From Candidatus Campbellbacteria bacterium GW2011_OD1_34_28 (GTDB taxonomy: Bacteria; Patescibacteriota; Minisyncoccia; Phycocordibacterales; UBA12079): 64,000 nt of DNA. The stretch is from the NCBI GenBank assembly GCA_001029775.1, contig CP011215.1:357722-421721 (forward strand). The letters are read 5' to 3'. The position numbers were made by a program, and so were the translations under genes. This document shows positions 4,617 to 50,788 of the stretch, one piece after another. Within the stretch, counting starts at the first letter, position 1; every line of letters begins with the position of its first letter. The notes under the pieces were generated by a model. That model ran no database searches. It saw only the letters and a list, made by a program, of their open reading frames with translations, and was not told where the DNA came from.

Positions 4617-4787
4617 AAAAAGAGCCAATAGCTAATAGCCGATAGCTGATAGTAAAAAATATGAAATTATTTTTGTAATATCCTATAAGCTATGAGCTGT
4701 CAGCTATAAGCTCGGTTAAATTCAATATAAATTACAAATATTAATAAATATTCGGGCTGTAGCAATGGCTAGACGACGAATAATAAT

Positions 4788-8483: not shown

Positions 8484-8800
8484 TAAAAAGGTGTAAGGAA
8501 TAAGGTATAAGTAGTAAGTGGGCGGGAAATTTGCTTCGCAAATTTCCCGCCCTGTTCGTTTCTAAATTTTAATATAATTCGTCTTTGCGAGCGAAGCGAA
8601 GCAATCCACGTCGTTCGTCGTGTTTTAAAAATTATTTCATTAAAAATTGTTTATAAATTAAAAATTATAAATTAAAAATTATAAATTAAAAATTTTAACT
8701 CCTATTTTCTAAATTCTCACTACTTACCCCTCACACCTTTCTCCTTACCCCTTACTACTTAGAGTTAATATGTTATAATCCAATTCATATAATTAAACAT
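8484..8800. repeat. Composite MITE-like repeat region with ~40-bp imperfect inverted ends
   Basis: 8492-8520 is the inverted complement of 8715-8760. Interior holds the hairpin gggcgggaaatttgc-ttcg-caaatttcccgccc, repeat family A (8581-8610) and a 14-bp AT tandem repeat x3 (8650-8695). Confidence 0.45.
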
Positions 8801-10222: not shown

Positions 10223-10344
10223 TTTGATATAACGAATCCGATCCACCCGTCTTTGCGAGCGACAGCGAACTTCGGATTTTTTAGGCAAAAAATTCGGAGC
10301 AATAAATCTAGATTTGTAATTTGTAACTTACAATATAAAATCAA

Positions 10345-10635
10345 ATGAGAGAAAAAACCGCCTATGTTTATATAATGGCAAGTAAGAAAAACGGAACATT
10401 GTATACGGGCGTAACATCTAATTTAGAAAAAAGAGTTTGGGAACACAAAAATAATATTGTAAAAAGTTTTACACAAAAATACAATGTTCACAATTTAGTT
10501 TATTTTGAATTCGGAGAAAATATTTTATCTGCGATAGAAAGAGAGAAACAAATTAAAAGTGGCTCTAGAAAAAAGAAAATAGAATTGATTGAAAAAGATA
10601 ATCCTGAATGGAATGATTTATCAAAAAACTTTTGA
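10345..10635 (+). CDS. GIY-YIG nuclease family protein (96 aa)
   Basis: YVYIMAS..GTLYTGVTSNLEKRVWEHK GIY...YIG motif. Confidence 0.8.
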   Translation: MREKTAYVYIMASKKNGTLYTGVTSNLEKRVWEHKNNIVKSFTQKYNVHNLVYFEFGENILSAIEREKQIKSGSRKKKIELIEKDNPEWNDLSKNF

Positions 10636-11165
10636 TGACGTGGATCGCGTCGGCTTCGCCTCGCGAAGACGATCCGCACGAACAACGTGGACCTGCCTCT
10701 TTTCTGAAAGAAAAGCAACGACACGGCGAGGCAGGTTGTTTCATTGCGTTCGCAATGACAAATTTCTAAAAGAAATTTGTCACCTTCGTCGTCATTGCGA
10801 GCGTAGCGAAGCAATCCATCATGAACTGTTTGTCCGAAATTAATGGACGTGGACCTGCCTGCCGGCGAGGCAGGTCGCTTCGGCTTCGCCTCGCGAAGAC
10901 GACCCGCACGAACAACGTGGACCTGCCTGCCGGCAGGCAGGTCGCTTCGTCGCTTCGTTGCACTCCGCTTCTCGCGAAGACGAAGCCACGTCGTCATTGC
11001 GAGCGTAGCGAAGCAATCCAGGACGACGAACAACTCAAAATAAACGACGTGGATTGCTTCACTTCGTTCGCAAAGACGGAATTTCTCAAAACGAAATTCC
11101 GTCACCTTCGTCGTCATTGCGAGCGTAGCGAAGCAATCCATAACAACTCGGTCTTGCAAAGAAAA
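10636..11165. repeat. Dense cluster of nested palindromic repeats (families A, B, C); non-coding
   Basis: Three forward copies of cgtcgtcattgcgagcgtagcgaagcaatcca (10788, 10990, 11110) plus an inverted copy at 11045. A 48-bp unit is duplicated (10650/10880). cctgcctgccggcaggcagg palindromes. Irregular spacing. Confidence 0.75.
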
Positions 11166-11347: not shown

Positions 11348-14300
11348 ATGAGGGAAGAAATTATTTTAAATAGTAAAAAATTTCTCTCACTGAAAACTGC
11401 TGCGAGAGAAACAAACTATACCAATGACTACATTGGTCAGCTTTGTCGTTCAGGCAAAATCAATTCTCAAATGGTAGGAAAAATTCGTTTTGTGGAAGAA
11501 GATTCCTTGCTTGAATATGTTAAAAAAGCGAATGGTTTTGTAGATATAAAATATGCAGATATTGAAAATATTGCTATCAAAAATAACAAGGATCTCGGCG
11601 ATTTCTCGTCTGTACGAGATACTGATTTTGCTCATTTCCGTCAAGACAAAGCCAACAGTTTGTATGTAAACATTTTTGAAACAGTTTTCTCTAAAAAAGT
11701 AGTTCATGTCTATATCGCAATACTTGTTTTGTGTGGATTGTTTTTTGGTAGTACTTTGGACATACAAGGAGGTTTTGCAAAAATAAAAAATAAATCTGCC
11801 GAAGGATTGGCAAAAATTGTCATGGGAGCAAAAGTGGCGTCTGACAAAATTTCGGAAACGACATTAGCTGTTGCAAATGGCGAGATTGATTACGAAAAAG
11901 TTTATAAAAATTACTCAAATTTTTTAGGAGAGATGTCCGTTGATTTTGCCGAAGGTGAAGTAAAGTATTTCAAAAATGTTACTGGTGTAGGTAGCAAAGT
12001 AACCGAAGCAATTTTTAATCCAAGCGATACTTTTGTAACAGTTAAAACAGAGACAAAAAAAATTCAGGGAAGTGTAGAAGAAATAATTTTTGGTGGTGTG
12101 ATTTATTTTGAAAATCTTTCTACTAATTTAATTCGTGTAAATGAAAAAATTTCTCAAAATGGTTTTGCACAAGAAAAAAATTTGGCATTGTTGAGTCAAG
12201 ACAGTTTTGGATTTACAGAAAAATTTGCAATTACTTGGTATAGAACGATATCAGGTTTTTTTAGTTCCGCTGAAAAAATAGCCGACAGCACGGACGAAGC
12301 TGACAGCGGACAGCTAACAACCAACAGCACAGACGAAGACGACTCGTCCGTCTTTGCGAGCGATAGCGAAGTAATCCAGGAAGAAGACGAAGCCAACAGC
12401 CAACAGCCAACAGCTAACAGCACGAACCAAAACACAACCATCGTTACAAACCCAATCAGAGAAATCATAAAAGAAACCGTTGTAGAAAGAGTTATCCAAA
12501 CATCAGGCGTCACACTGGAAGATCTACAAAAACTAAACAACGAACTCCGAAGTGAAATCTACAAACTCTCATCAAATACAAATGCTCAAATCACCAACAC
12601 CTACCAAGTCATCTCTGCTACTAACAACATCGACAATCTGGGTAGTGTCACAATCACCGACTCAAACATCAGTTCCTCAAATGTCTCAGGAACAGAACTA
12701 AGCTTTACCAACGGAACAATTCAAAACCTAACTGTCACAGGCACAGCTACCTCTACATACGGTGGCCCTATTTCTGCAACCAGTGGAACATACTCTGGCA
12801 ATCTAACCGTAACAGGCAACACCACTCTAAACACTCTTACCGTATCAGGAGACACAATCTTTGACACAGACACTCTTTACATCGATTCAATCAACAACCG
12901 TGTAGGCATCGGATCAACAACACCCACAGATACTCTTTCAATAAACGGAGCAACATACCTTGCACCAATATCAGCTCCATCAATCACAACCGACAGACTT
13001 TACAACATCTCCAATGATTTATACTGGGGTGGTAATCTTTTATCAGGTTCTGCCGTTGGTAATTGGACATCCAACGGAACAGATGTTTGGAGAGCATCAG
13101 GAAATGTGGGTATCGGCACATCATCACCATCTTCAGATTACAGACTATCTGTTCAAGGTAACACTTACATCAAAGGTAATCTTAGGGTAAACGGAAATAC
13201 TACAATTTCAGATAGCGGAGAATTAACAGTCGGAGACAAAGTTATCTCAGAAGGAGAAATCGGAGTTGGAACATCTTCTCCCTATGCCAAACTATCTATC
13301 CAAGGAACAACTGTTTCCACAACCACTTTTGGTATCTATGGTTTTGCAAATCAAACACAGTCTCTCTTTGATGTATATGACAATCCTACGAATAATTTAA
13401 ATGTGTTTAGAATCACGAGTGATGGCAGCGTCGGTATCGCTACATCATCACCTTTTAGAAAGTTGAGTGTAGAAGGTAGTGCGTGGATTAGTGGAGACTT
13501 AACAGCCAACAGTTTCACTGCTACTTCTTCAATGAGCGCTCCTTACTTTACTGCAACAGACTCAAGTGCAACAAGTACTTTTGCAGGAGGCTTGGCTGTT
13601 GGAACAAACAAATTTGTTGTTGATTATTCTACGGGAAATGTGGGGGTGGGGACGGTGAGTCCGGATCAAAAATTGGATGTAAATGGCTGGGGTCGTTTTG
13701 AGGGGGCTGGGTCTACAAATCGTAGTGATTCTGGTGCAATAGAGTTTTATAACAATAATGCTTCATCTCTTAATGTGCAAGCTCAAATAAAGGGTCTACG
13801 AGGTATAGGTTCATATAATTCTGGTCAATTGGGATTTTTCACTAGACTAGCGGGTACACTTTATGAGCGAATGACACTAGATGAAAACGGCAACGTCGGC
13901 ATTGGGACGATGGTGCCGGGATATAAATTGGATATTGCTGGTTCTGTGGCAGCCCCGACGACTTTACTTGTCCAAGCAGGAGGCATAACTGAAAATACTG
14001 GGAATGCTTTTCGTGTTTATAGAAACAGAGCTTCCTCTTCTACAAACGCTCCGTTAGTAGATTTTATAAATGATGCAGCAACGGATGACCAGCCACTTTT
14101 TAGACTTCAACAAGATGCACCAGCTGATATTCTCCAAGTTTTTGATGGAGCAACTCAAGTGTTTACAATCCTAGACGGCGGCAACGTCGGGATCGGCACC
14201 ACTTCACCTCTCGCAAAACTATCTGTCAAAGGAGCAGGAACAACCACAGGCATAAACTTCCAAACAACCAATTCGGCTGACACTCCGTTGGTGACTGTTT

Positions 14301-17300
14301 TGGATAGTGGGAATGTGGGAATTGGGACGGTGAGTCCGGGAGCGAAGCTTGAAGTTTTTGGCGACATGATAATAGGAGACGTGACGAATGGAAGCGTTTT
14401 TAGATATAATCCAACCACGAACACGATTGTGAACGGTGCACATGAAAATAGTATAGGTGTTGGTTCCTCAAATTCTATAATAGCTGCAGGAGGAGCTACT
14501 GCAAGTTCTAATATCAATAGTATTGGAACTGATTCTTACGTGACTACGATTAGTGGTGGATACGATAACACAATTGGAAATGACTCTCCTGCCGCAACTA
14601 TCAGCGGGGGTGCTCACCATCGAATAGATACAGGAGGAACACATGGAACAATAGGTGGTGGATCAACCAACACCATACAGGCCGGCGGAGATTATGGTTT
14701 CATTGGAGCAGGATTGAGTAATATTGTTGGAGGCACATATGCGTTCATAGGAGCAGGAAGCAACAATGTGGCTACAGGATTTAGATCTGCCGTCATGGGA
14801 GGTTATTCTAATGATGCAACGGGTCAATATGCCACCATTCCTGGCGGTTGGGGTAATGCCGCATCGGGTGATTATTCTTTTGCTTTCGGTTATAGGGCGA
14901 ATGCTGCCGCGACTGGCGTGGTTGTATTCAAAGATTCAGTAAACGCGCAATATACGGTTAATACAACTAATATGTTTGGAGCGAATTTCACAGGTGGTTA
15001 TCAGTTGCTCGGTGGTAACGTCGGCATCGGCACCACCTCACCTTTCGCAAAACTCTCTGTCAAAGGAGCAGGAACAACCACAGGTGTAAACTTCCAAACA
15101 ACCAATTCGGCTGATACTCCGTTGGTGACTGTTTTGGATAGTGGGAATGTCGGTATTGGGACGACGAATCCTGGAGCAATGTTGGAGTTATCTTCTATAA
15201 GTATTAATGGTTCAGTTTTACGTTTATCTAATAATAATAATACAATTGCCCAAGGTGAAGAATTAGGAAGTATAGAATTTTTTAGTGGAGATAATAGTGG
15301 TTCTTACCCAGATACAGTAAAAGCAAAGATTTTATCTCTCACTGAAGATTCTGTAAGTCGTGATGGAAATCTAGTTTTCAAAACTTCACTTTTGTCTGAT
15401 GCCTCACCAGTAGAAAGAATGAGAATAAATAGTAATGGCAACGTCGGCATTGGTTCCACCTCACCTTTTGCAAAACTATCCGTCAAAGGAGCGGGAACAA
15501 CCACAGGGATAAACTTCCAAACAACCAATTCGGCTAACACTCCTTTGGTGACTGTTTTGGATAGTGGAAATGTTGGTATTGGGACGACAGCGCCTAGTGA
15601 AAAATTAGAAGTTGCTGGAAATATTTTGTTATGGAATAGTGTCAATGATAATACATTAAGATTTAAAGATAATAATGTCGCTCACGGATTAACTGACCTT
15701 GTTTCTACATATATACATACTGAATTAAGAAATGAAGATGTGTCAGCAGGAGGAACAAGACTATTGGGGGTTACTGATCAGGATCTTGCCTCAGGAATTA
15801 ATTTGTATGGAGTGTTGGGTGTGACTGACCCAACTGATACTGTTCCTGCAATTAAAATTAATGGGGCAAAGAAAAACACTACTAATGTGCAATCTCTTGG
15901 AAACTTAGAAACAGTTTTTCAGGTTCAAAATAATACTTCCCCGTTATTGACTTTATTGGGAAATGGCAACCTCGGTATCGGCACCACCTCACCTTTTGCA
16001 AAACTTTCCGTCGTCGGAGATGTTGTTGCCGACTATTTCAACGCAACTTCAACCACAGCAACATCAACATTCGCTGGCGGTTTAACAGTGGGAACAAACA
16101 AGTTGGTGGTGGATAGGAGTACGGGCAACGTCGGAATCGGGACGGCGAGTCCGAGTCAAATGTTATCAGTTGGCGCAAGCAGTCAGTTTACGGTTACTTC
16201 AGCAGGTGTCGTAACCGGACAAAATTTTGCAGTAACCAGTGGGGCTTATGTAATAGATGTCAGTAACGGTTTAAGGTTGTATTCAAATGGTGGTCTGGGA
16301 ATAAAATTTACGACTTGGGATGGCAGCTATGTTGATAGGATGGTCGTTTCAACAACAGGTAACATCGGCATCGGCACCACTTCACCTTTTGCAAAACTTT
16401 CAGTAACAGGAACCGGAACAGGCACTGGCTCGGCTTTTCAAGTTGCCGATTCTGCCAACTCACCAAAATTTACTGTTTTGGATAATGGGAATGTGGGGGT
16501 GGGGACGGTGAGTCCGACTCAAAAATTAGACGTTAATGGAAATATTCATTTAGGATCCAGCGTTGATGATTTAACAACGAGAAATATATATTTGGCCTCC
16601 AATCGTTATTTAAGCCTTACTTCTACAGGGCTAGATGTTTCGAACTGGTATGGTTCCGATGGCAGCGCTCATAAAGTTGGGTTTAATGGGAAAGAAGTAT
16701 TGGTGGTTGGATCTAACGGAATTGTTGCTATAGGCAATAATATTAATGGCGGTCCTGGTGATTACATGCCTCTTGTTTTACAGGGAAATGAATCGGGCGA
16801 TGTATTAATTAAAAGCGATCAATATCAATGGGGCGTTGATACGCGTCCAATAAGAATAATTACAGATGACCCCTATGCCAATACCGGACAGACTTTAAAT
16901 GCTGGAAATATAGTTCTTCAAACAGGAATAGGGACAAATGGAGGAGCAACAGGAATAATAAAATTTGAAATTGGTGCATCTGGTTCTGAAAAAATGCGAA
17001 TTGACACTTCTGGCAACATCGGCATCGGCACCACCACCCCATGGAGAACTCTTTCCGTAAACGGAACAGCTGCTTTCACCGGTCTAACCAACGACGGAAC
17101 AGGTTATTACGCTTGTATATCAACCAACGGAGAACTAGCCACATCAACAACCGCTTGTGGAGCATCGTCAGAAAGATTTAAAACAAACATAAATGATCTA
17201 ACATACGGTCTAGACACAGTCCTTCAACTACGCCCTGTATCTTTCAACTGGAAATCAGACTTTATCAATTCTTCTTCAACTCAAATCGGATTTATTGCAG

Positions 17301-18079
17301 AAGAAGTTGATTTGTTAATCCCAGAAGTCATCGGACACGATGACAAAGGTAACATCATGAACCTTGATTATCCAAAGTTGACGGCGGTCTTGGTAGGTGC
17401 AATGAAAGAACTTAATACAAAAATCTCGGCTATTGCTTCTTCGACCCCAATCGTCTCAACAGGAATTGTTGATTCCGTTCTATCTCATCTAGAAAGTTTG
17501 GGTGCAAAATTTGTTGACGGTATTGCTTACTTCAAAGATGTTGTCGTAAAAACTTTGACAGCAGAAAAGGTTATCACAAATGGAATTGAGATGGTGGACG
17601 AAGTAACAGGAGAAATATATTGTGTGAGAATTCAAAACGGAGCGATGGTTAATATTGCGGGAACTTGTGATACAGCTAATAGCCAACAGCCAACAGCAGA
17701 ACCTTCAAACACCACTCCTCCCACAATAACAATCACAGGCAACAACCCAGCCGTAGTAGAAATAAACAGCAACTATATTGATCTAGGTGCTACAGCAGTA
17801 GACTATCAAGGAAACTCTCTAATAGTAGATACAATAGACGCAGATACAGTAGACACAACAACAGCAGGAGAATACACAGTTACTTACACAACATTTGATG
17901 GAACACTGACTTCAACAAGTACAAGAACAGTACTTGTTGAAGATTCAACAGCTGTAACAACAGAACCAGCAACGACAACAGAGCCAACAGCAACGACAAC
18001 AAATCCTGTGGTAGAACCGACAGCTACGACGACAGATCCAGTGGTAGAACCGACAGCGACAACGACAGAGCAGATTTAA
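11348..18079 (+). CDS. Giant (2243 aa) membrane-anchored fibre-like surface protein. Order: N-terminal HTH-like segment, TM helix, many GNVGIGTTSPxAKLxV and Hep_Hag-like beta-roll repeats, peptidase-S74 intramolecular chaperone domain, C-terminal Ig-like (DUF5011-type) domain and Thr/Pro-rich tail.
   Basis: Single uninterrupted ORF. The S74 motif is SSERFKTNINDL...PVSFNWKS...GFIAEEV...PEVI...DYPKLTAVLVGAMKELN. The Ig-like motif is ITITGNNPAVVEINSNYIDLGATAVDYQGN...GEYTVTYT. Confidence 0.85.
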   Translation: MREEIILNSKKFLSLKTAARETNYTNDYIGQLCRSGKINSQMVGKIRFVEEDSLLEYVKKANGFVDIKYADIENIAIKNNKDLGDFSSVRDTDFAHFRQDKANSLYVNIFETVFSKKVVHVYIAILVLCGLFFGSTLDIQGGFAKIKNKSAEGLAKIVMGAKVASDKISETTLAVANGEIDYEKVYKNYSNFLGEMSVDFAEGEVKYFKNVTGVGSKVTEAIFNPSDTFVTVKTETKKIQGSVEEIIFGGVIYFENLSTNLIRVNEKISQNGFAQEKNLALLSQDSFGFTEKFAITWYRTISGFFSSAEKIADSTDEADSGQLTTNSTDEDDSSVFASDSEVIQEEDEANSQQPTANSTNQNTTIVTNPIREIIKETVVERVIQTSGVTLEDLQKLNNELRSEIYKLSSNTNAQITNTYQVISATNNIDNLGSVTITDSNISSSNVSGTELSFTNGTIQNLTVTGTATSTYGGPISATSGTYSGNLTVTGNTTLNTLTVSGDTIFDTDTLYIDSINNRVGIGSTTPTDTLSINGATYLAPISAPSITTDRLYNISNDLYWGGNLLSGSAVGNWTSNGTDVWRASGNVGIGTSSPSSDYRLSVQGNTYIKGNLRVNGNTTISDSGELTVGDKVISEGEIGVGTSSPYAKLSIQGTTVSTTTFGIYGFANQTQSLFDVYDNPTNNLNVFRITSDGSVGIATSSPFRKLSVEGSAWISGDLTANSFTATSSMSAPYFTATDSSATSTFAGGLAVGTNKFVVDYSTGNVGVGTVSPDQKLDVNGWGRFEGAGSTNRSDSGAIEFYNNNASSLNVQAQIKGLRGIGSYNSGQLGFFTRLAGTLYERMTLDENGNVGIGTMVPGYKLDIAGSVAAPTTLLVQAGGITENTGNAFRVYRNRASSSTNAPLVDFINDAATDDQPLFRLQQDAPADILQVFDGATQVFTILDGGNVGIGTTSPLAKLSVKGAGTTTGINFQTTNSADTPLVTVLDSGNVGIGTVSPGAKLEVFGDMIIGDVTNGSVFRYNPTTNTIVNGAHENSIGVGSSNSIIAAGGATASSNINSIGTDSYVTTISGGYDNTIGNDSPAATISGGAHHRIDTGGTHGTIGGGSTNTIQAGGDYGFIGAGLSNIVGGTYAFIGAGSNNVATGFRSAVMGGYSNDATGQYATIPGGWGNAASGDYSFAFGYRANAAATGVVVFKDSVNAQYTVNTTNMFGANFTGGYQLLGGNVGIGTTSPFAKLSVKGAGTTTGVNFQTTNSADTPLVTVLDSGNVGIGTTNPGAMLELSSISINGSVLRLSNNNNTIAQGEELGSIEFFSGDNSGSYPDTVKAKILSLTEDSVSRDGNLVFKTSLLSDASPVERMRINSNGNVGIGSTSPFAKLSVKGAGTTTGINFQTTNSANTPLVTVLDSGNVGIGTTAPSEKLEVAGNILLWNSVNDNTLRFKDNNVAHGLTDLVSTYIHTELRNEDVSAGGTRLLGVTDQDLASGINLYGVLGVTDPTDTVPAIKINGAKKNTTNVQSLGNLETVFQVQNNTSPLLTLLGNGNLGIGTTSPFAKLSVVGDVVADYFNATSTTATSTFAGGLTVGTNKLVVDRSTGNVGIGTASPSQMLSVGASSQFTVTSAGVVTGQNFAVTSGAYVIDVSNGLRLYSNGGLGIKFTTWDGSYVDRMVVSTTGNIGIGTTSPFAKLSVTGTGTGTGSAFQVADSANSPKFTVLDNGNVGVGTVSPTQKLDVNGNIHLGSSVDDLTTRNIYLASNRYLSLTSTGLDVSNWYGSDGSAHKVGFNGKEVLVVGSNGIVAIGNNINGGPGDYMPLVLQGNESGDVLIKSDQYQWGVDTRPIRIITDDPYANTGQTLNAGNIVLQTGIGTNGGATGIIKFEIGASGSEKMRIDTSGNIGIGTTTPWRTLSVNGTAAFTGLTNDGTGYYACISTNGELATSTTACGASSERFKTNINDLTYGLDTVLQLRPVSFNWKSDFINSSSTQIGFIAEEVDLLIPEVIGHDDKGNIMNLDYPKLTAVLVGAMKELNTKISAIASSTPIVSTGIVDSVLSHLESLGAKFVDGIAYFKDVVVKTLTAEKVITNGIEMVDEVTGEIYCVRIQNGAMVNIAGTCDTANSQQPTAEPSNTTPPTITITGNNPAVVEINSNYIDLGATAVDYQGNSLIVDTIDADTVDTTTAGEYTVTYTTFDGTLTSTSTRTVLVEDSTAVTTEPATTTEPTATTTNPVVEPTATTTDPVVEPTATTTEQI

Positions 18080-21508: not shown

Positions 21509-21527
21509 GACTGGGTCCGACCCAGTC
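21509..21527. repeat. Perfect hairpin gactgggtc-c-gacccagtc, copy 1 (upstream of RAYT gene)
   Basis: Identical copies at 21728-21746 and 22230-22248. Confidence 0.8.
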
Positions 21528-21549: not shown

Positions 21550-22251
21550 ATGAGAAGAAAAGTACTATTTGTAAACGGAGAATTTTATCATATCTTTAAT
21601 AGGGGAACAGATAAAAGAAACATATTTTCGGATAAAAATGATGCATTTAGATTTCTTGAAAGTATCGAAGTTTTTAATAATATTGAAGCCGGCAATAATA
21701 TCTTTCGCACTCATAGATTGAAAAATGGACTGGGTCCGACCCAGTCTAATCCAGAGAAGATAGAGAAAAAAGAACCAATAGTGAATATTATTTGTTATTG
21801 TTTAAATTCAAATCATTATCATTTTATATTGGAACAATTAGTTGATGGTGGAATAAGTGAATTTATGAAGAGGCTAGGAGGTGGCTATACTTGTTATTAT
21901 AATGAAAGACATAAAAGATCGGGGGTATTATTTCAGGGTAAGTTCAAAGCTGCTCATATAAAATCAAATGAACAATTATTGCGCCTTAGTTCTTATGTGA
22001 ATTTGAACAATAAAGTCCATCAAAAATTTGATAAATATAAAAAAAATTTCCTTGATTTGATTGCAAATAGATCAAGTTGGGAAGAATATATTAAAAAAGA
22101 TAATAAATACAGTATTTGCAAAAAAGATATCATTTTAGGACAATTTAAAAACAGAGAAGATTATAGAAAAAATGCCGAAGATGTGATAAAAGAAATTAAA
22201 GAAATGAGGTATGGGGAAGAAGTAAACTCGACTGGGTCCGACCCAGTCTAA
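21550..22251 (+). CDS. IS200/IS605-family HUH transposase, REP-associated tyrosine transposase (RAYT)-like
   Basis: EFYHIFNRG..IF, HUH motif NHYHFIL, GYTCYYNERHKRSGVLFQGKFKA..LSSYVNLNN; flanked by identical hairpins. Confidence 0.7.
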   Translation: MRRKVLFVNGEFYHIFNRGTDKRNIFSDKNDAFRFLESIEVFNNIEAGNNIFRTHRLKNGLGPTQSNPEKIEKKEPIVNIICYCLNSNHYHFILEQLVDGGISEFMKRLGGGYTCYYNERHKRSGVLFQGKFKAAHIKSNEQLLRLSSYVNLNNKVHQKFDKYKKNFLDLIANRSSWEEYIKKDNKYSICKKDIILGQFKNREDYRKNAEDVIKEIKEMRYGEEVNSTGSDPV

Positions 22252-24261: not shown

Positions 24262-24264
24262 TTT

Positions 24265-24435
24265 TAGCAACTAGCAACTAGTTTTTAGCAAACGAATGAC
24301 GACGTGGATTGCTTCGTTACACTCGCAAAGACGGATTTTGCGAAGCAAAATCCGTCACAAATTTTCTTTGGAAATTCGTCTTTGCGAACGAAGTGAAGCA
24401 ATCCACGATAGTTTCTAAAAACTAAAAACTAATAT
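24265..24435. repeat. Inverted pair of family-A repeats flanking the hairpin gacggattttgcgaagcaaaatccgtc
   Basis: gacgtggattgcttcg...cgaagtgaagcaatccacg. Confidence 0.75.
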
Positions 24436-24439
24436 TATT

Positions 24440-25420: not shown

Positions 25421-25424
25421 TTGA

Positions 25425-25525
25425 GCACATAGCGTATAGCGTGTAGCGTGTAGGGAACGAATTTTGCCTTTGGCAAAATTCGTTCAAAACCTATACCCCA
25501 TACCCTAAACGCTATACGCTAAAAA
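25425..25525. repeat. Family-D palindrome: TAG-rich heptamer arms (agcgtatagcgtgtaggg / ccctaaacgctatacgct) around a GC hairpin
   Basis: Arms are mutual inverted complements. Central hairpin is gaacgaattttgcc-tttg-gcaaaattcgttc. Related copies at 26700-26745, 41640-41730, 50700-50785. Confidence 0.7.
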
Positions 25526-25529
25526 GATT

Positions 25530-37706: not shown

Positions 37707-37804
37707 TTATTAACAAAGCCAATAGCCAATAGCTGGTAGCAAAAAAATTCCAAGGGAAATTTTTTGCCTTAAACTATAAGCTATAAGCTATAAGCTAAAA
37801 TATT

Positions 37805-38810: not shown

Positions 38811-38884
38811 AGTTGGTAGTTGGTAGTTGGTAGTTGGTAGTTGGTAGTTGGTAGTTGGTAGTTGGTAGTTGGTAGTTGGTAGTT
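38811..38884. repeat. Heptanucleotide microsatellite (GTTGGTA)x~10 abutting the tRNA 5' end
   Basis: Unit matches the tRNA D-loop sequence cagttggtag. Confidence 0.85.
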
Positions 38885-38957
38885 GCCATCTTAGCTCAGT
38901 TGGTAGAGCAACGGTTTTGTAAACCGTAGGTCCTCGGTTCGAATCCGAGAGATGGCT
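38885..38957 (+). tRNA. tRNA-Thr (anticodon UGU)
   Basis: Cloverleaf: acceptor gccatct/agatggc, D-arm gctc-agttggtag-agc, anticodon stem acggt/accgt with loop tttgtaa, T-arm ctcgg-ttcgaat-ccgag. Confidence 0.85.
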
Positions 38958-39147
38958 CAGAAAAAGTTTACAGTTAACAGTAAACAGTTTACAGTAACAA
39001 AAAAATCCCTGCGGGGATTTTTTGTTTGTTGCTCTAACGACTGAGCTAGCTCAGTAGGATAAAAAGCAAACTGCTTTGCTTTTTATCCGGTTTTTGCTTT
39101 AGCAAAAAATTTCCGTTATCGAGTGAAGCGAGATAGGAAATAGGTGG

Positions 39148-39181
39148 GAGAGCAACGGTTTTGTAAACCGTAGGTCCTCGG
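39148..39181 (+). other. Partial duplicate of tRNA-Thr (D-stem 3' strand through T-stem 5' strand)
   Basis: agagcaacggttttgtaaaccgtaggtcctcgg identical to the intact tRNA; remaining T-loop/acceptor piece at 39483-39498 beyond the GIY-YIG gene. Confidence 0.6.
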
Positions 39182-39224
39182 CCCGCCCAGCACTCAATTT
39201 TATTTTTTTTGATATAATTTTTGC

Positions 39225-39473
39225 ATGTACTATTTTTATGTTTTAAAAAATAATGAGAATGAATTATATTATGGTTCAACGAGTGATATCAAAAAAAGAA
39301 TTTTTGAACATAATAATAACCGCTCAATTTCTACTAAAGGAAAAACTTGGAAATTAATTTATTACGAAGCATATTTATTTGAAGATGATGCCCGTAATCG
39401 TGAGCATCAAATTAAGCATCACGGACAAGCAAAGAGGTGGTTGAAAGAGAGAATCAAAAATTCTTTGAAATAA
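39225..39473 (+). CDS. GIY-YIG nuclease family protein (82 aa) inserted in tRNA-Thr duplicate
   Basis: YYFYVLKN..ELYYGSTSDIKKRIFEHNN; flanked by inverted cccagcactcaatttt / aaattgagtgctggg. Confidence 0.8.
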   Translation: MYYFYVLKNNENELYYGSTSDIKKRIFEHNNNRSISTKGKTWKLIYYEAYLFEDDARNREHQIKHHGQAKRWLKERIKNSLK

Positions 39474-39575
39474 AATTGAGTGCTGGGTTAAAATCCGAGA
39501 GATGGCTCAGAAAAAGTTTACAGTTAACAGTAAACAGTTTACAGTAACAAAAAAATCCCTGCGGGGATTTTTTTG

Positions 39576-39790
39576 TTTTGAATGAGACGAAGTTTCGTCC
39601 GTCTTTGCGAGGTACGAAGCAATTCACGACGGACGTGGATCGCTTCACTATTGTTCGCGAAGACGGAATTTCGCAAAGCGAAATTCCGTTCGACCCGTCC
39701 GTCATTGCGAGCGGTAGCGAAGCAATCCACAAAAACTGTTTAGATTTTGTTTTTTTAGGGCTTAGTGATGTTTTCAACACATGAATCTTT
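39576..39790. repeat. Family-A repeat cluster (forward, inverted, forward copies plus the hairpin gacggaatttcgcaaagcgaaattccgt)
   Basis: Direct sequence match to the repeat consensus. Confidence 0.75.
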
Positions 39791-39887
39791 AAAGGACCGT
39801 TTTTTGTTGACATTTTTTCGCTCTTGGTTAAGAATGATGAGGAAACCGGCTTTGTTGACCAAAGCCATTGTACCTTAAAATCTTGCT

Positions 39888-48398: not shown

Positions 48399-49541
48399 AT
48401 GATTAATAAAAACAGAAAAAAAGTATTTGTAGGATTGTCTGGCGGGGTAGACTCGTCTGTTTCTGCTGTTTTATTAAAGAATCAAGGATATGATGTTACG
48501 GGTGTTTTTATCAAGGTTTGGCAACCTGAATTTGTAAAATGTGATTGGAGAGAAGACCGATTAGATGCTATGCGTATTTGTGCAAAACTGGAAATACCTT
48601 TTATGGATTTAGATTTGGAAGAAGAATATAAAAAACAAGTTTTTGATTATATGATTGAAGAATACAAAAACGGAAGAACTCCTAACCCGGATGTAATGTG
48701 CAATAAAGCAATCAAGTTTGGTGGATTTTTGAAATTTGCTTTGGATAACGGTGCGGATTATGTTGCGACGGGTCATTACGCACGCTCTGTGGAGCGTGAA
48801 TTTCTAATTTCCAATTTCCAATTTCCAAATAAGGAATTCTCTAATTCTCAAGAATTAGAGAATAGATTTGAGTTGTTGGCGGGGAAAGATGATAACAAAG
48901 ATCAGTCTTATTTTCTTTGGACATTAACTCAAGATCAACTGAAATATATTTTGTTTCCTGTAGGGCATTTAGAAAAACCAAGAGTGAGAGAATTGGCAAA
49001 AAAATATGATTTGCTGACTGCAGAAAAAAAAGATAGCCAAGGCCTTTGTTTTGTTGGTATGGTAGAGATGAAAGATTTTCTTAAGAGATTTTTGCAAGAA
49101 AAAAGAGGAGATGTATTAAATGAAAATGGAAATATAATCGGATACCATGACGGAGCTTTTTATTATACCTTTGGTCAGAGACACGGATTTGTAATTACCG
49201 AAAAGACATCCGATGATAAGCCTTATTTCGTTATCGAAAAAAGCATAGAGAAAAACACAATTACTGTTTCAGAAAAACTTCGTGAAAAAAATATTTTTGA
49301 TAAAAAAGAAATTGAAATTGAAAATATAAACTGGATTTCTGGAAATGAACCAGATTTAGATAAAAAATATCAAGCGAGGATAAGATACCGACAACCACTG
49401 CAATCGTGCAAAATATATAAGAACTCGTCTTCTGAAAATTTTAAAGTTATTTTTGATGAACATCAAAAATCAGCCTCATCTGGGCAATCCGTTGTTTTTT
49501 ATGATGGCGAGGTTTGTTTGGGAGGAGGAATTATTTGCTAG
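48399..49541 (+). CDS. mnmA: tRNA-specific 2-thiouridylase MnmA
   Basis: VFVGLSGGVDSSV PP-loop; contains an in-frame insertion with AATTTCC x3 at ~48800. Confidence 0.9.
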   Translation: MINKNRKKVFVGLSGGVDSSVSAVLLKNQGYDVTGVFIKVWQPEFVKCDWREDRLDAMRICAKLEIPFMDLDLEEEYKKQVFDYMIEEYKNGRTPNPDVMCNKAIKFGGFLKFALDNGADYVATGHYARSVEREFLISNFQFPNKEFSNSQELENRFELLAGKDDNKDQSYFLWTLTQDQLKYILFPVGHLEKPRVRELAKKYDLLTAEKKDSQGLCFVGMVEMKDFLKRFLQEKRGDVLNENGNIIGYHDGAFYYTFGQRHGFVITEKTSDDKPYFVIEKSIEKNTITVSEKLREKNIFDKKEIEIENINWISGNEPDLDKKYQARIRYRQPLQSCKIYKNSSSENFKVIFDEHQKSASSGQSVVFYDGEVCLGGGIIC

Positions 49542-50688: not shown

Positions 50689-50788
50689 ATTATTAAATTA
50701 AGCGTATAGCGTATAGTGTGTAGGGAAACGAATTTTTGCGAAGCAAAAATTCGTTCAAACTAAACCCTAATCGCTAGACCCTAAATAT

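Follow-up and report, generated by a model that had tools for sequence, protein, structure and literature searches.

The two linkers of a giant gene in the window (the whole 64,000-nt stretch of DNA that was analyzed) are probably patchworks of intergenic repeat modules, which were inserted or recombined and then turned over in frame within a giant surface protein. The repeats in these linkers were homologous to intergenic DNA, were read in frame, and were replaced at specific sites among relatives, and the sequence on both flanks was under purifying selection. The gene and the two segments that border its first linker were as follows:

11348-18079, plus strand: the giant gene, an ORF of 2243 aa; the same gene was called in locus L001.
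12236-12262, plus strand: left anchor of linker 1, the conserved WYRT(I/V)SG(F/L)F motif that closes the N-terminal domain.
12433-13128, plus strand: stalk module to the right of linker 1 (REIIKETVVERVIQ...), 96.6% shared with the same-genome paralog L012.

The predicted protein consisted, in order, of an N-terminal HTH-like segment, a TM helix, linker 1, fibre-like GNVGIGT repeats, Peptidase_S74 (aa 1940-1994), linker 2, and an Ig-like domain (aa 2127-2197). The product is read as a giant surface fibre protein, with the linkers as interdomain spacers. Exact look-up of the protein sequence gave no match. In the anchor motif, W12 and R14 were invariant, and Y13 and T15 were found in 7 of the 8 rows of alignment A1. 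The stalk module was rich in A+C. The junction at linker 1 was the same in independent assemblies (L001: 99.94% identity; L002: 100% identity through window position 12609).

Linker 1 was a spacer of about 150 bases (12280-12424) with three in-frame pieces, namely an array, a family A arm, and a second array. Its elements and a peptide stretch of the predicted protein were:

12280-12335, plus strand: heptamer array 1, degenerate (AGCCGAC, GCTGAC, AGCGGAC, AGCTAAC, AACCAAC), encoding ADSTDEADSGQLTTNST.
12340-12380, plus strand: solo family A arm with a GTCC leader, encoding DSSVFASDSEVIQ.
12383-12395, plus strand: fragment GAAGACGAAGCCA, identical at 13/13 positions to intergenic 10976-10988, which lies beside family A (E = 0.02, weak alone).
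12391-12424, plus strand: heptamer array 2 (three AGCCAAC units plus AGCTAAC), encoding ANSQQPTANS.
Peptide stretch in the predicted giant protein: SSVFASDSEVIQEEDEANSQQPTANS.

The initial annotation had described a forward family A repeat at 12352 and heptamers with CAG in place of TAG, translated in frame as an acidic low-complexity linker. The repeat was present and belonged to a real family, but CGTCTTTGCGAGCGATAGCGAAGTAATCCAGG had its single occurrence at 12349-12380 (plus strand) and not at 12352. The CAG-for-TAG heptamers were found as AGCCAAC-type units at 12391-12421 (TRF: period 7, 4.4 copies, 95% matches, score 55) and in the degenerate array at 12280-12335. The translation was as quoted and corresponded to aa 312-358 of the ORF, with 15 D+E against 1 K+R, 17 S+T, and a GRAVY of -1.25. 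In an AlphaFold2 model of aa 1-560, linker 1 had no secondary structure and the lowest pLDDT (22-25) in a model that was poor as a whole (mean pLDDT 39), which weakly suggests that linker 1 is probably disordered.

The intergenic repeats used for comparison were:

39628-39735, plus strand: reference palindromic composite of about 100 nt, made of an inverted arm, a small hairpin, and a forward family A arm.
10636-11140, no strand assigned: densely packed intergenic repeats, namely family A with GC-rich companions, downstream of a GIY-YIG gene.
4623-4652, plus strand: intergenic TAG-type heptamer array (AGCCAAT, AGCTAAT, AGCCGAT, AGCTGAT) with stops in all three frames.
38965-38999, plus strand: intergenic CAG-type heptamer array (AGTTTAC/AGTTAAC), having 11-mers in common with the in-frame array of L012.

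Family A was a GC-rich unit of 27-40 nt, usually found as inverted pairs that make long hairpins; in 20 doublets from other loci, the loops were 13-37 nt. GTCWTTGCGAGCGNAGCGAAGCAATCC had 9 copies in the window with 3 or fewer mismatches against 0 expected, and all 9 lay outside credible genes. A near-identical 27-mer was found by DNA pattern search and BLAST in Alphaproteobacteria, Legionella, cyanobacteria, and about 108 IMG/VR contigs. A protein search with a repeat-made ORF gave 4 matches; repeat-only ORFs such as 10500-11159 (minus strand) are spurious. Rfam gave no match at gathering thresholds, with merely chance-level matches to miRNA models (E up to 1), and literature searches by peptide words, DNA words, and topic found no description of these repeats. 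TRF showed more than 25 period-7 arrays in the window, almost all intergenic.

The family A arm of linker 1 matched intergenic 39691-39729 over 39 nt without gaps (ident 89.7%, E = 2.4e-8) and 10247-10269 over 23 nt (ident 95.7%). TATAGCCGATAGC and ATAGCCGATAGC of heptamer array 1 recurred at intergenic 1768 and 4635, and heptamer array 2 matched intergenic 51837-51817 on the minus strand (19/21, E = 0.02). When 2232 coding segments of 160 nt were ranked by GC-containing 11-mers in common with intergenic DNA, leaving out three doubtful ORFs at 39046-39813, only linker 1 and one transposase-like gene ranked high; the latter (21728, 22230) carries a hairpin of its own.

Folding analysis showed that the intergenic family A copies at 39632-39732, 24296-24410, and 10985-11085 formed hairpins (z -4.7 to -8.2), with the reference composite at -27 kcal/mol (z -4.7). 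The arm in linker 1 formed no hairpin (z -0.4 to -1.5); it is a non-folding half-element, and thus the palindrome has been lost in the window copy. The paralogs L012 and L005 carried the complete composite of about 100 nt in frame. The coding linker of L012 was 88% identical to intergenic 39640-39723 over 84 nt, with a local score of 64 where shuffled sequences reached at most 14 (alignment A3), and L005 was 81% identical to 39628-39735 over 110 aligned columns. The palindrome in the paralog coding linker folded at -35.7 kcal/mol (z -7.2). The repeats had been called palindromic, which held in full for the paralogs, whereas the window copy was one unfolded arm.

These matches bear on an origin of the resemblance in situ, through slippage or convergent composition within a low-complexity acidic linker and without transfer from intergenic DNA. 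Slippage is a frequent way in which low-complexity linkers evolve, and the heptamer match to intergenic DNA was, taken alone, of moderate significance (19/21, E = 0.02). However, the non-periodic matches of 39 nt and 84 nt were far beyond chance, a complete folding palindrome was present in a paralog coding linker, and expansion by a single 7-nt unit would shift the frame. The matches and the paralog fold largely refute an origin in place, which we regard as highly improbable.

Linker 2 was built from the same type of unit:

17672-17697, plus strand: heptamer array 3, directly before the Ig-like domain, encoding ANSQQPTA.

The second CAG variant noted near 17680 was located at 17676-17704 (GCTAATAGCCAACAGCCAACAGCAGAACC), encoding TANSQQPTAEP. 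At the site of heptamer array 3, locus L007 carried an inverted family-A-like unit (NDVDRFVPREDG).

Reading-frame analysis showed how such repeats could remain open. Family A was free of stops in all six frames. The array at 4623-4652 was the stop-bearing counterpart of the genic arrays: intergenic GCC AAT AGC TAA TAG CCG reads ANS-stop-stop-P, and the gene in that phase reads ANSQQP. In the arrays of L013, L015, L016, and the L007 tail, TAG was retained in both of the out-of-frame phases, and CAG or AAG stood only at positions where TAG would have been read as a stop. In the window arrays, the out-of-frame units were mostly CAG as well, which an open frame does not need, and some of the CAG-type changes were synonymous (GAT to GAC). 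Because CAG-type arrays also exist between genes (38965, 39515, and 51817 on the minus strand), conversion of T to C in place is not required.

Relatives were sampled thinly, with 3 relevant loci from the genome scan and 6 from the metagenome scan. The initial annotation had proposed a comparison with orthologs. In L008, an ortholog from another species, the flanks aligned at 87-91% nucleotide identity upstream and 81% downstream, and the sequence across window positions 12249-12455 could not be aligned, the L008 linker being a patchwork of other repeat units. The dN/dS values against L008 for three flanking segments were 0.34, 0.25, and 0.17; purifying selection acted in one and the same frame on either side of linker 1. 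In all, 10 linker variants were found with WYRT... and ...KETVVERV as their common anchors, all of them open and unlike each other in repeat content. Heptamer array 1 was homologous to the L013 linker, whose units are of the TAG type (GCCGATAGC, TTGATAGTC), and heptamer array 2 was missing from the paralogs L012 and L013.

A second site lay upstream in the gene. L008 had a 180-nt in-frame repeat cluster at window position 11637, P0001 had a different in-frame cluster there, and the window had none; a deletion may have left TTCCGTCAAGAC at 11636. Each linker event was an insertion or a deletion, and the sampled sequences fit either. The earlier proposal that the repeats had been exapted or inserted with the frame intact was borne out by L008 and the paralogs as to insertion and turnover; exaptation went beyond this evidence.

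The long ORF might also not be one translated gene: the repeats could mark what was once a spacer between two genes and is open by accident, or the gene could be a pseudogene or an assembly chimera. The layout of array, GC-rich unit, and array mimics intergenic spacers, accidental read-through would be easy because family A is stop-free, and the contigs of one assembly break shortly past the linker. Against this stand the purifying selection in the same frame on both flanks, the identical junction in independent assemblies, and the architecture of N-terminal domain, linker, and stalk, which was retained in about ten relatives, including the distant L017 and P0009 with the same domains and no GC-rich repeats in their linkers. 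This explanation is very unlikely. Fusion of two genes across a spacer was rejected, since the architecture is also kept by distant homologs whose linkers are free of repeats.

Another explanation gives the linker repeats a function, as recombination substrates that shuffle N-terminal anchors onto common stalk and fibre modules by cassette exchange or gene conversion, and not as sequence that is merely tolerated. Homology to paralogs began precisely where the linker ends on its right, at 12433 (L012, L007, L016) or 12461 (L008, L014, L015), and the homology blocks of L012, L013, and L014 finished near 13119-13128. From 12433 on, the same-genome paralog matched the window at 96.6% identity, and it was unrelated before that point. 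Of the 12 differences that separate the window from L001, 10 fell within 12526-13186, and composition changed abruptly at 12280-13000. However, homology to L013 began upstream of the linker, at the WYRT motif (12239), which suggests that crossovers may lie in conserved coding motifs rather than in the repeats, and no recombinant pair with a breakpoint within a repeat unit was found. Shuffling is compatible with insertion and turnover of intergenic modules and does not exclude it; as an explanation of the linkers we consider it unlikely, though the least so of the alternatives.

The 7-nt arrays could instead be contingency tracts, in which gaining or losing one unit would shift the frame and so toggle the giant surface protein by phase variation. 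A 7-nt unit is not a whole number of codons, the array lies within a gene for a surface protein, and the genome has a perfect AGTTGGT array of 10.7 copies (38811-38885), evidence that heptamer tracts can grow there. On the other side, the window arrays in question have just three perfect units, the array at 12391-12424 was the same in L001 and L002 (consensus assemblies, in which minority variants are invisible), and the arrays were degenerate in several relatives. Phase variation is an improbable role for them.

The simplest reading, which suffices for the data, is tolerated insertion and turnover of repeat modules in a disordered acidic spacer. Family A units and 7-nt arrays would have entered the giant gene through insertion or recombination, and modules in the linkers would be continually gained, lost, and swapped. 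They would survive only if their total length keeps the frame and the frame that is read is free of stops; heptamer arrays, in which one TAG per three units falls in frame, would be tolerated once CAG or AAG stands in its place. The product would be an acidic, Ser/Thr-rich tether, probably disordered, that joins the membrane-proximal N-terminal domain to the stalk. As judged from the DNA, translation of the linkers, a pure spacer role, and this mode of module movement are putative.

Rickettsia palindromic elements (RPEs) are the closest analogue of the translated linker repeats. Two reports (PMC10969869, PMC3184786) describe RPEs (Ogata et al. 2000) as dispersed palindromes located between genes and in frame within ORFs, translated as extra peptides that the host protein tolerates, present or absent between related genomes, and occurring as single elements of about 100-150 bp in many unrelated Rickettsia genes. 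Family A likewise occurred between genes and inside an ORF with the frame unbroken, and varied in presence among relatives. However, its units are 27-40 nt long (about 100 nt as doublets) and mixed with 7-nt arrays, its insertions are repeatedly found in the same pair of linkers within a single giant-gene family, and the window copy is a 39-nt half-element and not a palindrome of about 100-150 bp, the palindrome being found only in L012 and L005. The host belongs to the Patescibacteria (Campbellbacteria), which makes membership in a Rickettsia RPE family implausible, and the family A unit also occurs in other phyla.

Family A resembled REP elements and REPINs in its inverted unit pairs with a short variable loop and a long hairpin, and in its intergenic position, often just past stop codons and without target-site duplication. 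REP elements have a GTAG head and are usually lineage-specific, whereas family A lacks this head and its 27-mer spans distant phyla. A RAYT was rejected as mobiliser: the sole Y1-transposase-like gene in the window (Y1_Tnp-like, 21550-22251; 64 kb examined) was flanked by the unrelated hairpin ACTGGGTCCGACCCAGT and not by family A. GIY-YIG is not proposed as mobiliser either; both GIY-YIG genes of the window (10345-10635 and 39225-39473) abut repeat clusters, but none of 108 other loci with family A encoded a detectable GIY-YIG ORF.

MITE-type repeats fused to ORFs include ERIC, BOX, RUP, BRE, and Coxiella QMITE (PMC3184786, PMC10969869, PMC5896051). Both kinds are small and non-autonomous, have open frames, and lengthen or interrupt coding sequence in frame. 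Family A also has inverted arms, but it showed no target-site duplication (a flanking direct repeat was missing at 19 of 20 doublets), and its units are much shorter and form a modular mix with tandem heptamers.

Cyanobacterial STRR heptanucleotide repeats were reportedly described by Vioque in 1997 inside the RNase P RNA gene. Like the arrays here, they are tandem 7-nt repeats, plentiful between genes and occasionally found in a gene; a sequence relationship, for example of CAACAGT with CAACAGC, is putative. The phylum is different, however, the intergenic arrays here carry a TAG per unit with stops in three frames, and array variants lie within protein-coding frames.

Conversion of repeat to protein is clear here, yet it is not unprecedented. 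The initial annotation had called it rare, which was not upheld: cases of this type are already known (RPEs and others; PMC10969869, PMC3184786), and they recur in the giant-gene family. What the window adds is a passage from non-coding repeat DNA to protein sequence that can be traced base by base in a streamlined, uncultured lineage, as a process that recurs at defined permissive sites and is not a one-off. It also adds two undescribed features, a cross-phylum 27-nt palindromic unit and heptamer arrays with stops in all three frames.

The mnmA gene contained a heptamer array and a hairpin in frame, and this insertion was missing from an ortholog (86% protein and 88% nucleotide identity) and from solved MnmA structures, which suggests that in-frame repeat insertion is a general process. 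Tentatively, the 27-nt palindromic unit and the TAG-heptamer arrays might be a general, ongoing supply of coding spacers in Patescibacteria, rewriting the linkers of giant proteins and permissive enzyme loops (MnmA), and through them the surface fibres of these episymbionts may vary in length or antigenicity or have their modules shuffled. For annotation, the peptide words VFASxAKQS, VDRFTIVRED, DLPAGRQ, ANSQQP, and DSQKSIVDS mark translated repeats and not domains.

The giant gene, which houses the repeats of two linkers, encodes a surface fibre-like protein, and the window matched both the 1.44-Mb scaffold ANAN16-1 and contigs of GCA_003489565.1 at 99.9-100% identity. Its features were as follows.

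11348-18079 (+), giant gene, ORF of 2243 aa
aa 1940-1994 of the giant protein, Peptidase_S74 (Pfam)
aa 2127-2197 of the giant protein, bacterial surface Ig-like domain (Pfam)
12280-12335, degenerate heptamer array 1, read from the sequence

The N-terminus of the protein was a small, confidently modelled domain followed by a hydrophobic helix, and the body consisted of GNVGIGT-type fibre repeats (repeat families D1, D2, D5, and D8). Linker 1 (12280-12424) reads in frame as the same acidic low-complexity peptide that the initial annotation gave (15 D+E versus 1 K+R; Ser/Thr-rich; GRAVY -1.25); it had the lowest pLDDT and lacked secondary structure in a model that was otherwise poor overall. A composition break was also observed at the linker (12300-13000): GC skew changed from +0.2 to +0.37 upstream to -0.4 downstream, AT skew reached +0.55, and the coding strand was A+C-rich.

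The family A repeat (a GC-rich dispersed unit) proposed for this gene proved real; the quoted 32-mer occurred once, at 12349-12380 rather than at 12352. GTCWTTGCGAGCGNAGCGAAGCAATCC had nine copies at ≤3 mismatches in the window, where none was expected, and all nine lay between credible genes. BLAST analysis of linker 1 against the intergenic DNA of the window revealed a 39-nt ungapped match (89.7%, E=2.4e-8) to 39691-39729, a copy of the same length variant (GCGAGCG-R-TAGCGAAG), a 23-nt match (95.7%) to 10247-10269, and five more matches with E ≤0.006. The AGCCAAC-type heptamers were recovered by TRF (AGCCAAC x4.4, 12391-12421), and the second CAG-variant copy, reported near 17680, corresponded to a period-7 array at 17672-17697 (linker 2). 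When 11-mers shared with intergenic DNA were counted in credible coding windows, the outliers were linker 1 and a hairpin-bearing transposase-like gene only.

Between genes, family A units usually formed inverted pairs and thus long hairpins. Many spacers had a recurring order of 7-nt array with TAG in each unit, hairpin or family A pair, and 7-nt array of CTA-containing units.

39632-39732, family A hairpin, -27 kcal/mol, z -4.7
24296-24410, family A hairpin, z -8.2
10985-11085, family A hairpin, z -5.2
8581, 10791, 10993, 11051, 11113, 18156, 24306, 24378, 26753, and 39701, family A 27-nt units
4623-4712, 24262-24439, 25421-25529, 37707-37804, and 50689-50788, examples of spacers with the TAG array, hairpin, CTA array order

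The family A copy of the giant gene was the right arm alone and did not fold (z -0.4 and -1.5). In the same-genome paralog L012, the in-frame element was palindromic over its full length (-35.7 kcal/mol, z -7.2). Intergenic DNA at 39628-39735 was collinear with the coding linker of L012 (84 nt, 88%, ungapped; score 64 versus a shuffle maximum of 14) and with that of another paralog, L005 (81% over 110 aligned columns). A further in-frame palindromic element, CCCGTTAGAGACCACGACTGTCTCTGACAGTCTGTCTCTAACGGGG, encoding PLETTTVSDSLSLTGQ, was present in L005 (10790-10840), in the linkers of L014 and L015, and in the C-terminal tail of L007; in its variant IPSQTTVVSDDLSATGQ, the palindrome was preserved by paired changes in both arms.

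Relatives were searched with the first 538 residues of the giant protein and their loci were retrieved, giving one true ortholog (L008, from another species) and the paralogs L004/L012 (same genome), L013, L007, L005, and L014-L017. Every relative had a linker of ~50-90 aa between WYRT(I/V)SG(F/L)F and REI(I/V)KETVVERVIQ, with an open frame throughout and differing content.

L012 linker 1, VFASVAKQS, DVDLPAGEAGRF, TIVREDEVSQSETSSDSS, VFASDSEA
L008 linker 1, VFARS..., DLPAGRQ, VDRVVVVTPRED, VIANAVKQS
L005 linker 1, a similar set, plus PLETTTVSDSLSLTGQ
L013, L015, and L016 linker 1, DSQKSIVDS arrays
L017 (most distant, most AT-rich) linker 1, without GC-rich repeats

At the DNA level, the giant gene was 87-91% identical to the ortholog upstream and 81% downstream, 12249-12455 was unalignable, and dN/dS in three flanking segments was 0.34, 0.25, and 0.17. 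Conserved flanks around an unalignable linker are what the initial annotation counted in favour of repeat-to-protein conversion, and the opposite of the linker conservation that it named as evidence against. At window position 11637, the ortholog held 180 nt of in-frame units (family A, PAGRQ-type, and related), and the relative P0001 had another cluster there. Linker 2 had an ANSQQPTA array in the window versus an inverted family A-like unit, NDVDRFVPREDG, in L007. Linker 1 thus far compared consists of intergenic repeat modules, and their turnover outpaces divergence of the flanks.

TAG arrays had stop codons in all three frames, and family A was stop-free in all six. Window array 1 was homologous to the L013 linker, whose TAG-type units (GCCGATAGC, TTGATAGTC) had 12-13-mers in common with the intergenic arrays at 1768 and 4635. 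In L013, L015, L016, and the C-terminal tail of L007, TAG was kept in the two out-of-frame phases, and AAG or CAG stood exactly in the in-frame phase. Intergenic GCC AAT AGC TAA TAG CCG reads ANS-stop-stop-P, and GCC AAC AGC CAA CAG CCA of the gene reads ANSQQP. CAG-type arrays were also intergenic (38965, 39515, and 51817(-)), so stop-free arrays could have been inserted ready-made. The out-of-frame units of the window arrays were mostly CAG as well, and several changes were synonymous (GAT to GAC). Since a 7-nt unit cannot expand singly within the frame, arrival of a pre-formed array is favoured over growth in place.

The initial interpretation was supported, strict exaptation and the route of movement aside: intergenic modules are tolerated in the linker because the frame is kept and stops are absent. 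Compatible with this reading, the linker repeats are suggested to serve additionally as recombination junctions. Homology blocks began at 12433 or 12461, the same-genome paralog was 96.6% identical directly after the linker, and strain differences were concentrated in 12526-13186; homology with L013, however, started at the conserved WYRT motif and not within a repeat. All 12 differences from the scaffold L001 (99.94% identical over 18.5 kb) lay within the giant gene (12526-13186, 17194, 17788), 10 of them in the stalk module shared with a paralog, a pattern suggestive of gene conversion between paralogs or of mixed paralog reads.

Ample precedent exists for repeats inserted in frame, from the classic Rickettsia palindromic elements to ERIC, BOX, RUP, BRE, and Coxiella MITEs (PMC10969869, PMC3184786). 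The giant gene works in the same way, but its units are small, modular, and mixed with heptamer arrays, they recur at fixed linkers within a single gene family, and the host is patescibacterial. Family A doublets resembled REPINs in forming hairpins without target-site duplication. The local Y1 (IS200-like) transposase-like gene (21550-22251), however, is flanked by a hairpin other than family A, ACTGGGTCCGACCCAGT, at 21510 and at 22231 (overlapping the stop codon), with a third copy in frame within the gene at 21729.

The family A 27-mer was not lineage-specific. Exact copies stood in 108 stretches of IMG/VR contigs, whose loci ranged in GC from 0.39 to 0.73 (median 0.65). Plasmids of Novosphingobium (one replicon with the unit in at least 40 places), Methylobacterium, Methylosinus, Legionella, and heterocystous cyanobacteria had it too. 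It usually formed inverted pairs around a loop of 13-37 nt, with unique flanks and no target-site duplication. No Rfam match was found, and the literature search returned no published description.

In the regions 10345-11140 and 38885-39735, both GIY-YIG genes of the window were directly followed by GC-rich repeat clusters; no GIY-YIG ORF was found in the 108 other family A loci. The second gene (39225-39473) lay between 94-nt duplicates (38930-39023 and 39480-39573) comprising a tRNA 3' end, the trailing array, and a terminator, and 39149-39181 was a partial tRNA copy; the region resembles a tRNA gene that has received an insertion. A perfect AGTTGGT x10.7 array (38811-38885) abutted the 5' end of the tRNA gene at 38885-38957.

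In the secY-gatB spacer, 48 nt (8545-8592) were missing from the assembly L002, with one edge of the deletion within a family A unit, reflecting either repeat-associated polymorphism or an assembly artefact. A 219-aa ORF (10500-11159, -) consisted wholly of repeat translations (DCFATLAMT, LLRYARND, PAGRQ...); public assemblies annotate it as a gene (L001 13286-13927; P0013), but it is almost certainly spurious.

The housekeeping gene mnmA (48399-49541) carried AATTTCY x4 and a small hairpin (9-bp stem) in frame at ~48798-48860; the reverse complement, TTRGAAA, resembled the intergenic array at 291-320. Solved MnmA structures lack the 19 aa that this insertion adds, and it was missing in the ortholog 86% identical in protein (88% nt). 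Across Patescibacteria MnmA, this loop was a length-variable hot spot with seven-residue-periodic peptides.
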